From a virus (taxonomy: Duplodnaviria > Heunggongvirae > Uroviricota > Caudoviricetes), in the IMG/VR virus record IMGVR_UViG_2877269240_000007: a stretch of DNA of 62,425 bases; one strand, 5' to 3'. The stretch's first letter is position 1, and each line of letters starts with the position of its first letter. Shown here one piece after another: positions 5,547 through 7,439 of the stretch. The position numbers and the translations under genes were made by a program. The notes beneath the pieces are model-generated. The model was not told the origin of the DNA and searched no databases. It saw nothing but the letters and a program-made list of their open reading frames with translations.

Positions 5547-6094
5547 TGGAGCACCTGTGTTGTTCTGAGGTGAGCATATCACCTCTGTTCAGGTGGCCAA
5601 ATTCAGTGTGCCACTTCACCCCTGAAGGTGAGATCGATTTTACCTGGAGTGAACGCTATCAACTCAGCAAAGACTCCATGACATGGGAACTAAAACCGGG
5701 AGCAGCGCCAGACGACGTTCACCACCAGGATAATGCTCAAGAAACCAAAGAACTGGCGGGAGGCCAGGAAGAAAACGCGCAGGCAGACGCCCACGAGGAT
5801 TGCCAGGATTGCGAAGTCTCTGTAGCCACTTTGCGGTTCACACAGCGTCTTCTGCACATTTTTACGTATGCTGCCGGGGATCGGAAATACCTGCATCATG
5901 CCACCCGTGAACAACGCAAACACATTACTGCTCTTGAGATGGATCAGGAAAACAGCTATGTCCAGAATCTGCTGTTGGCCATACGCGGCATGGCAGAACC
6001 GACAACTCTGGATAATGCCGCCCTGCTCCGCCTGACTGATGCAATTAAGGCTGAGGTGTACTGGCAATAGCGGACACTACCATTTGTTCTTTTT

Positions 6095-6886
6095 TTAAGC
6101 AGCTATCTGATGATATTTTTCCCTGAAGGCTGCCGGGGAGATATTCCCCAGACGAGAGTGACGACGCTGACGATTGTAGAAAATCTCAATGTATTCCCGT
6201 ATTACTGAGATGGCTTCATCCCGGTTATTAAAACGATAGTGGCTCAGGCTCTCATTTTTCAGCGTTCCCCAGAAGCTTTCCATCGGAGCGTTGTCGTAAC
6301 AGTTACCTTTACGCGACATTGATGTTTTCAGACCAAACTGCTCCTGTATGACCCGGTAATCGTATGCGCAGTACTGTGAACCTCGATCAGAGTGGTGGAT
6401 TAGCCCGGCAGGTGGGCGCTGGCTCCTGAGCGCCATAAACAGGGCTTTACCTGTCAGCTCTTTTGTCATGCGCTCTCCCATGGCGTAGCCGACAATTTCG
6501 CACGTATAAACATCTTTGATGCCAGCAACATACGTCAGGTCCGCCACCCAGACCTGATTTGGTGCTGTAGGAGCGAACGTCTGGTTCAGCAGATTTGGCG
6601 CAACTGGCAGATTGTGGTTCGGGTTCGTAGTCGCTCTGAACTTGCGTTTCTGCTTACAGCGTAGCCTCAGCTCCTTACGAAGACGTGCCAGTCGGTCACG
6701 ACCAACGATGATGCCATTCTCTGCCAGCTCCGTCTGGAGCCGCCGGGTTCCATATGTTTCGCGAGTGCGGATATGTGCCACCTTAATCTCCAGTTTTAGC
6801 CGCTCATCACTTTGTTTTCTGTCTGAGGGTTCATGCTGTACCCAGTTGTAATAACCGCTCCTGGATACACCAAATACCTGACACAT
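6095..6886 (-). CDS. IS600 OrfB (9-aa deletion variant)
   Basis: 263 aa; identical deletion in copies at 21814 and 34453. Confidence 0.8.
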   Translation of the reverse strand: MCQVFGVSRSGYYNWVQHEPSDRKQSDERLKLEIKVAHIRTRETYGTRRLQTELAENGIIVGRDRLARLRKELRLRCKQKRKFRATTNPNHNLPVAPNLLNQTFAPTAPNQVWVADLTYVAGIKDVYTCEIVGYAMGERMTKELTGKALFMALRSQRPPAGLIHHSDRGSQYCAYDYRVIQEQFGLKTSMSRKGNCYDNAPMESFWGTLKNESLSHYRFNNRDEAISVIREYIEIFYNRQRRHSRLGNISPAAFREKYHQIAA

Positions 6887-6921
6887 CGCTTCAATGGGAA
6901 ATTGTTGTCGCCATTGTTCGA

Positions 6922-7224
6922 TTAACGCGTATTTTTCAGCGACTCCTGTGCAAAATACGCTGTTGATTTTTTTAATATATCGCGCTCAAGGCGAGCTTCA
7001 TTTAACGCCTTACGCAGTTGCAGAATTTCAGATTCCAGTTCAGCCACCGTGCGGGAACCAGGAGTACCGAGCCCTTTTCTGGCGGCGGTAACCCATTGTC
7101 CTAAAGTGCCTTCAGGAAGAGATAATCGGGAAGCGCCTTCACTGATCGAAAGTTGATTTTCAAGAACCGTTCTGACAGCTTCGGCTTTGAACTCTTTAGA
7201 GTAACGTTGGGTTTTTCTGCTCAT
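6922..7224 (-). CDS. IS600 OrfA
   Basis: 100-aa OrfA. Confidence 0.85.
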   Translation of the reverse strand: MSRKTQRYSKEFKAEAVRTVLENQLSISEGASRLSLPEGTLGQWVTAARKGLGTPGSRTVAELESEILQLRKALNEARLERDILKKSTAYFAQESLKNTR

Positions 7225-7439
7225 TATTAGCTCCTTCTGATGCCATTCTATTTCAGGAAGGAGTGTCCGTTAAACTCAGGCTACCTCAATATGCTTTCCT
7301 TCCAGGTAAACCTCGTGAACAATGTTATCAGTAGTTGCAACAGTGGCTTCATAATTGGTGTTCATGTTTTTCTCCTTAATTAAGGTTGAGCGAATCCCTG
7401 CCATTGCTGGCATAAATTCAGTTTCGAATAGTCAGTTAA

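Follow-up and report, generated by a model that had tools for sequence, protein, structure and literature searches.

IS600 copies in the window and their shared deletion

The sequence considered here, referred to as the window, is a stretch of 62,425 nucleotides recorded as a virus of the class Caudoviricetes (IMG/VR record IMGVR_UViG_2877269240_000007), and the element in question is the insertion sequence (IS) IS600, which occurs in the window in six copies, labelled A to F and delineated by self-BLAST and MAFFT alignment. Three of them carry a 27-bp segment of orfB that the other three lack. The segment is present in copy A (2611–3873, plus strand, 1263 bp, flanks ATG and TAT), copy B (16911–18174, minus strand, 1264 bp, with an intact 3-bp target duplication AGC) and copy C (36775–37858, plus strand, 1084 bp, interrupted by another IS). 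It is missing from copy D (6052–7288, minus strand, 1237 bp, both terminal repeats intact, flanks TAT and GCC with no target duplication), copy E (21771–23007, minus strand, 1237 bp, ends intact, flanks GAC and CTG) and copy F (34410–35464, minus strand, 1055 bp, 5′-truncated and without approximately the first 185 bp of the IS). The 27 bp aside, the pairwise identity among the six copies is 99.1–99.8%. The 27-mer CACACAGGAGGGATGGTTGTACCTCGC has exactly three occurrences in the window, at 3375–3401 (plus strand, in A), 17384–17410 (minus strand, in B) and 37359–37385 (plus strand, in C), against a chance expectation of 0.

The original prediction held that three IS600 copies share an identical 27-bp deletion, and the multiple alignment of the six copies bears this out: the block missing from D, E and F is exactly the same, no difference in endpoints is seen, and each copy reads GTTGC|TGGC in the IS orientation, with the junctions at 6525–6526 in D, 22244–22245 in E and 34883–34884 in F (all on the minus strand). 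The placement of the deletion is ambiguous by 2 bp (a GC microhomology), and there is no longer direct repeat at its borders. All six copies lie where they had been placed, apart from the end of F (35464, not 35468) and the start of C (36775, not 36777). A, B and C had been described as full length; all of them retain the 27 bp, but C lacks IS positions 1–180. The length of copy A, 1263 bp, reflects a 1-bp loss in the A7 run at the orfB stop (window position 3829, IS position 1220). The two A7 runs of IS600, at IS position 316 (the frameshift site) and at 1220, vary by one base among assemblies, and these differences could be real slippage or homopolymer sequencing errors.

By length, termini, reading-frame layout and target duplications, the elements are IS600, a member of the IS3 group of the IS3 family known from Shigella and E. 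coli. Copy B has the IS600-type length of 1264 bp, the window elements exceed 99% identity to IS600 over that length with the same layout, and the matches in plasmids and E. coli genomes are annotated as IS600, with the product given as “IS3-like element IS600 family transposase”. The terminal inverted repeats are imperfect and of the TG...CA type; left and right ends both start with TGAGGT and share 20 of their first 30 positions. A, B, D and E have both repeats, and C and F lack the left one. The first open reading frame (ORF), orfA, occupies IS positions 65–367, and orfB lies in the −1 frame, which is open from position 304 onwards; a slippery A7G stretch at positions 316–323 is a candidate site of programmed −1 frameshifting. 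Fused OrfAB proteins are annotated in other assemblies, with 385 aa for the full-length allele and 376 aa for the deleted one. Target duplications of 3 bp are found at B (AGC), at a site adjacent to amn (ATG), at F and C in assembly CP026792.1 (GAC and AAC, respectively) and at the site corresponding to the right flank of E in CP000266.1 (CTG); a further one, TAT, is given by the reconstructed site that the left flank of D and the right flank of A share. Copies D, E and A themselves carry hybrid flanks derived from IS–IS recombination. The DDE triad (D116, D176, E212) and K219 are invariant in full-length IS600 and in the IS3-family paralogues of the window. D, E and F differ from IS600 as 1237-bp-type alleles that encode an OrfB of 263 aa instead of 272 aa. 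The mechanistic paradigm for this family's copy-out-paste-in transposition by OrfAB is IS911, which has the same two-ORF frameshift organisation and DDE core as IS600.

The deletion is in frame. OrfB is 272 aa long in A, B and C and 263 aa long in D (6095–6886), E (21814–22605) and F (34453–35244), all three on the minus strand; the product of E is identical to a protein annotated as S. flexneri (Shigella flexneri) IS600 ORF2, and the product of F is identical to that of E. The missing residues, 121–129, read ATQEGWLYL and begin five residues past D116 of the motif WVADLTY, in agreement with the earlier claim of an in-frame loss of this peptide near the first catalytic Asp. All three DDE residues are kept, with the spacing between the two Asp residues reduced from 60 to 51, and the score of the Pfam rve domain falls from 90.6 bits in the full-length protein to 68.2 bits in the deleted one. 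An AlphaFold model places strands at residues 112–122, 125–134 and 139–146, so that, in the RNase-H-like core, the deletion is predicted to take away the last part of strand 1 together with the hairpin turn and the initial half of strand 2. The model was built from five sequences and has a mean predicted local distance difference test score of 70, with 85–90 across residues 110–170; because a search of PDB sequences with OrfB gave no match at E ≤ 0.01, the strand assignment rests on this model. The IS911-like, IS2 and IS629-like OrfB proteins of the window all align with residues across the deleted stretch (the IS911-like OrfB, with 36% identity, has WTGKRWAYL opposite ATQEGWLYL), which indicates that the 1264-bp form is ancestral. 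With parts of two core strands predicted to be lost and the spacing of the Asp residues shortened, the OrfAB transposase of a deleted copy is very probably inactive; the term “defective”, as used below, refers to this reading of fold position and Pfam score. We know of no comparable core-strand deletion spreading in nature.

Occurrence of the two alleles across assemblies

Sequence collections were scanned for the deletion junction with 40-mers unable to seed on the wrong allele, and a 40-mer from the intact segment served as a positive control. A longer junction query of 69 nt was non-discriminating, as full-length copies matched it completely across the 27 bp. The junction 40-mer had no match in 72,556 plasmids, where the control matched at 1,153 places in 665 plasmids (121 of these from Shigella), and no match in 5,426 complete E. 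coli genomes, where the control matched at 5,722 or more places in 2,810 genomes. No contig of the JGI metagenomes contained the junction. It was found in two prophage contigs among the IMG/VR viral contigs, both representing site D, and once each in two species-representative genomes, S. flexneri SFBU1023 and “E. coli” ECMA0423. The exact 263-aa OrfB proteins, present on 37 and 6 contigs, are on record solely as S. flexneri “IS600 ORF2”, and window positions 30453–39244 are 100% identical to S. flexneri LR213452.1. In the collections scanned, the deleted allele was thus found only in S. flexneri-type chromosomes, and this distribution marks it as a lineage-specific variant of the S. flexneri chromosome. 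The allele is already annotated in GenBank; our literature searches found no description of it.

We retrieved orthologous regions from several dozen S. flexneri assemblies via neighbouring genes and classified the IS600 copies by their 12-bp flanks. At site D the 27 bp are present in three assemblies (CP182555.1, CP026788.1 and CP178302.1) and deleted in eight; at site E they are present in one (CP178302.1) and deleted in 10, including AE014073.1, which we take to be strain 2457T. Site A has the full-length allele in 10 assemblies and the deleted one in CP026768.1 only. Site B, with its duplication AGC, carries the 27-bp segment in five assemblies, is deleted in two (CP026765.1 and UAUS01000007.1) and unoccupied in four records including CP000266.1. 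Site F is deleted in the window and full length in CP026792.1, where the copy is complete with the duplication GAC, and site C retains the 27 bp in all assemblies sampled. Hence five of the six window sites (A, B, D, E and F) show an allele switch with unchanged flanks, the 12 bp on both sides being identical. Across strains the insertion sites are conserved, down to the hybrid flanks of D, E and A that lack a duplication, and it is the 27-bp state that differs. The endpoints of the deletion are the same in every deleted copy examined, about 30 copies, which come from over 25 assemblies and occupy at least nine sites. The amn-adjacent site is deleted in four of four assemblies and has a perfect 3-bp duplication ATG; it is the only site that fits an insertion of the defective form at a never-full-length site with its own duplication, all other sampled sites being full length in some strain. 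It may simply be the site where the deletion arose.

The flanks of A and D also record an older rearrangement. The left flank of D and the right flank of A, joined with a single TAT, form one uninterrupted sequence of the ydaE region that is found in 1,764 E. coli genomes, which identifies A and D as products of an inversion between two IS600 copies. The inversion lies in a Rac-like prophage remnant, is common to all 11 strains aligned over this region, and is old. As D and E lack target duplications and hybrid flanks are common to both alleles, insertion and rearrangement predate the allele switch.

Several comparisons between strains point to the exchange of internal patches among copies. 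In the alignment of the 11 strains over the D–A region, 23 of 2,472 columns are variable in the IS interiors compared with 2 of 1,962 in the flanks (p = 1.4 × 10−4 by Fisher’s exact test). Copy A of the window differs from that of CP026768.1 at six positions in addition to the 27 bp, and about 3.1 kb of flanking sequence differs at two; the 27 bp are the sole difference between copy B of CP026765.1 and copy B of the window. A single nucleotide polymorphism (SNP) private to site D, 1212A, is present in full-length and deleted alleles alike. By the four-gamete test, the deletion marker is incompatible with 11 of 25 informative sites, and 56 of all 325 site pairs are incompatible. Copy B of CP182555.1 contains an internal patch of about 300 bp (IS positions ~495–802) that is 89% identical to IS600, stays in frame and reads ATREGWLYL (fetched locus ~2948–3287); the presumed donor of this conversion is a diverged relative of IS600 outside the loci fetched.

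The number of deleted copies also varies among genomes. CP178302.1 and CP182556.1 have exactly one junction genome-wide each, at the amn-adjacent site, and sites A, D and E of CP178302.1 are all full length. CP054913.1 has deleted copies at D and E, CP026768.1 at A and D, and the window at D, E and F within its 62 kb. The count per genome therefore ranges from one to at least three at shared sites, a change in allele number that indicates non-reciprocal transfer. As to direction, sites B (in CP026765.1) and A (in CP026768.1) went, by parsimony, from full length to deleted in sub-lineages. In CP026788.1 the copy at site D matches the deleted D copies in haplotype, yet the 27 bp are present and 1212A is lost; probably it was converted back by a tract that spanned 450 bp or more and included 1212A. 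Conversion seems to have gone in both directions, a provisional conclusion drawn by parsimony.

Probable gene conversion and other possible routes of spread

The probable explanation of these observations, in which we have fairly high confidence, is that the deletion arose once and then spread mainly by ectopic gene conversion between IS600 copies already in place and not by jumping. One chromosomal copy in the S. flexneri lineage would have lost 27 bp inside orfB, and the deleted allele would then have moved between IS600 copies resident at fixed chromosomal sites by homologous, non-reciprocal patch transfer, presumably dependent on RecA. Transfers would have occurred both from full length to deleted and from deleted to full length, and D, E and F would be old insertions, common to many strains, that now carry a deleted patch, rather than three transpositions. 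The original prediction attributed the three copies to one defective progenitor, and single descent is supported by the identical endpoints, the 2-bp microhomology and the restriction to S. flexneri-type chromosomes in the collections scanned. It named trans-mobilisation or gene conversion as the means of spread; gene conversion is now largely favoured, and no case that requires trans-mobilisation was found.

Some points weigh against this explanation. How many conversion events took place, and in which direction, was judged by parsimony from a few dozen assemblies, and recombination between alleles of different strains could redistribute an older polymorphism. The deleted state of A in CP026768.1 and the full-length state of F in CP026792.1 are singletons that come from one assembly each and could be assembly errors, and the count of deleted copies for the window’s own genome relies on the 62-kb window. 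The first arrival of the allele at any second site is equally compatible with trans-mobilisation followed by back-conversion. Finally, the loss of transposase activity is a prediction from structure.

Under trans-mobilisation, deleted copies with intact ends would be non-autonomous elements copied to new sites by the transposase of full-length IS600. D and E have intact ends, an intact orfA and an intact putative A7G frameshift signal, full-length copies are present alongside deleted ones in the genome, and the deleted amn-adjacent copy has its perfect duplication ATG. However, every deleted site of the window is full length with the same flanks in at least one other assembly, and therefore conversion is needed in any case; trans-mobilisation cannot account for such same-site polymorphisms. 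The deleted copies hold the private SNPs of their own sites rather than a single master haplotype, D and E lack duplications, and hybrid flanks occur with either allele. IS3-family transposases are also generally held to prefer acting in cis. Among the sampled sites we found no new insertion attributable to a defective copy, and conversion at pre-existing sites explains the spread. We consider trans-mobilisation an unlikely main route.

Reciprocal exchange alone, in which crossovers and inversions shuffle the deleted segment and leave the number of copies constant, is in keeping with the origin of A and D as recombinants of an IS600–IS600 inversion and with the non-matching flanks at many copies. 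It is nevertheless improbable, as the number of deleted copies differs between genomes with the same occupied sites and strains with different allele states have the A–D segment in one and the same orientation.

The apparent allele switches could also be mimicked by assembly or polishing errors in which reads of paralogous IS copies are misassigned. IS copies are indeed difficult to polish, and the one-base differences in the A7 runs (positions 316 and 1220) resemble homopolymer errors in some assemblies. On the other hand, the states recur in independent assemblies (E is deleted in 10 and D in eight, plus two IMG/VR contigs), and mis-polishing would favour the majority full-length form, not site-specific patterns; an artefact is very improbable. 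Independent loss of the same 27 bp at each locus through a slippage hotspot at the GC repeat that borders the block can be virtually dismissed: recurrence is implausible because 2 bp is negligible homology, the endpoints are identical everywhere, and a hotspot would have recurred among the intact segments in E. coli genomes and plasmids, of which there are at least 6,800 against no deleted one.

A further possibility concerns the consequences of gene conversion. The deleted OrfAB retains the helix-turn-helix, the leucine-zipper region, the C-terminus and all three DDE residues, and we can speculate that a dead transposase that still binds DNA and multimerises gains copies purely by gene conversion and progressively silences IS600 in S. 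flexneri; as a dominant-negative subunit it might poison the remaining active transposase as well. We regard this as rather doubtful; if true, IS expansion would limit itself without transposition or host selection.

Gene conversion among IS600 copies, the explanation we favour, has close parallels. Ectopic gene conversion drives concerted evolution in rRNA operons and tuf genes and has been proposed for IS copies. The IS600 copies show the same non-reciprocal patch transfer, mosaic haplotypes and variation within the repeat that exceeds that of the flanks; the difference is that the marker is a disabling deletion, so that conversion spreads the defect as well as repairing it. Non-autonomous deletion derivatives of IS that are mobilised in trans and miniature inverted-repeat transposable elements likewise have intact ends, a probably dead transposase gene and autonomous copies alongside, but the IS600 deletion is merely 27 bp and in frame. 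The IS600 case is a clean natural example of conversion, ordinary in kind and not a new type of system.

IS expansion drives the decay of Shigella genomes, and when IS copies of one genome are nearly identical, this is usually put down to recent transposition. The 27-bp deletion is a natural tag that reveals the exchange of internal patches between old, fixed IS600 copies; because of this exchange, copy-to-copy identity does not date transposition, and phylogenies built from Shigella IS copies can be misleading. No movement is needed for a defective transposase allele to spread or to be repaired. In practice the effect is modest: counts of IS600 copies put the number of active elements in S. 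flexneri too high, short-read IS typing is blind to the distinction between deleted and full-length IS600, and the deletion has modest value as a marker for the concerted evolution of IS copies. Conversion between IS copies is accepted as possible, but a survey of IS families found common signatures of conversion to be absent within families (PMC2018620), and in a study of Wolbachia conversion was raised merely as something that could explain homogeneity within genomes (PMC2515875). Five IS, IS600 among them, are expanded in all Shigella species, and Hawkey et al. concluded that much of the IS expansion in S. flexneri predates the diversification of its lineages (PMC7373316); the conserved IS600 sites seen here agree with such a pre-diversification expansion.

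Local rearrangements and other elements

Copies F and C are inverted relative to each other, and the sequence between them (35465–36774, minus strand) is a 1310-bp IS3-family element, which by its size we take to be IS629/IS1203-like. CP026792.1 has a complete F and a C that is complete but for this 1310-bp element, which is inserted at positions 181–183 (duplication CAC); the two lie about 1.5 kb apart. Compared with this assembly (fetched locus 7471–13534), the window lacks 1,858 bp, with the junction near 35457–35464, and the loss removes the left arms of both IS600 copies and the spacer almost symmetrically. It looks like a deletion stimulated by inverted repeats. Truncation of C and F by one shared IS insertion had been considered as well and is ruled out by this 1,858-bp deletion between the inverted left arms. 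The copy at F in CP026792.1 has a 6-bp deletion at IS positions 1114–1119.

The IS600 at the right flank of E has a different left flank in CP000266.1 (fetched locus ~6155–7311), with the duplication CTG and the full-length allele. The duplication is intact there, and this arrangement makes E in the window a later recombinant of that insertion. The 3-bp flank GAC is common to the left side of E and the right side of F, and the longer flanks differ. Other deletions within IS600 include a loss of about 35 bp near positions 205–239 in copies adjacent to gltBD (two loci), which truncates orfA on the background of the 27-bp deletion and leaves copies of 1202 bp, and a 15-bp deletion plus SNPs in the copy at the amn site of CP004057.1.

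Apart from IS600, the window contains three copies of an IS911-like element of the IS3 family (4369–5622, 18806–20059 and 23062–24315), each 1.25 kb long and 99.8% identical. None of the 10 other aligned strains has the copy at 4375–5613 in the orthologous position, which marks it as a recent strain-specific insertion. An inverted repeat of 1.58 kb with 96% identity connects 1033–2610 with 58805–60382, and the two repeats probably sit in paralogous prophage remnants. The repeat at the left end covers part of an ipaH-like gene, with leucine-rich repeat and NEL domains, and a DUF4376 gene, the latter being cut by IS600 copy A.

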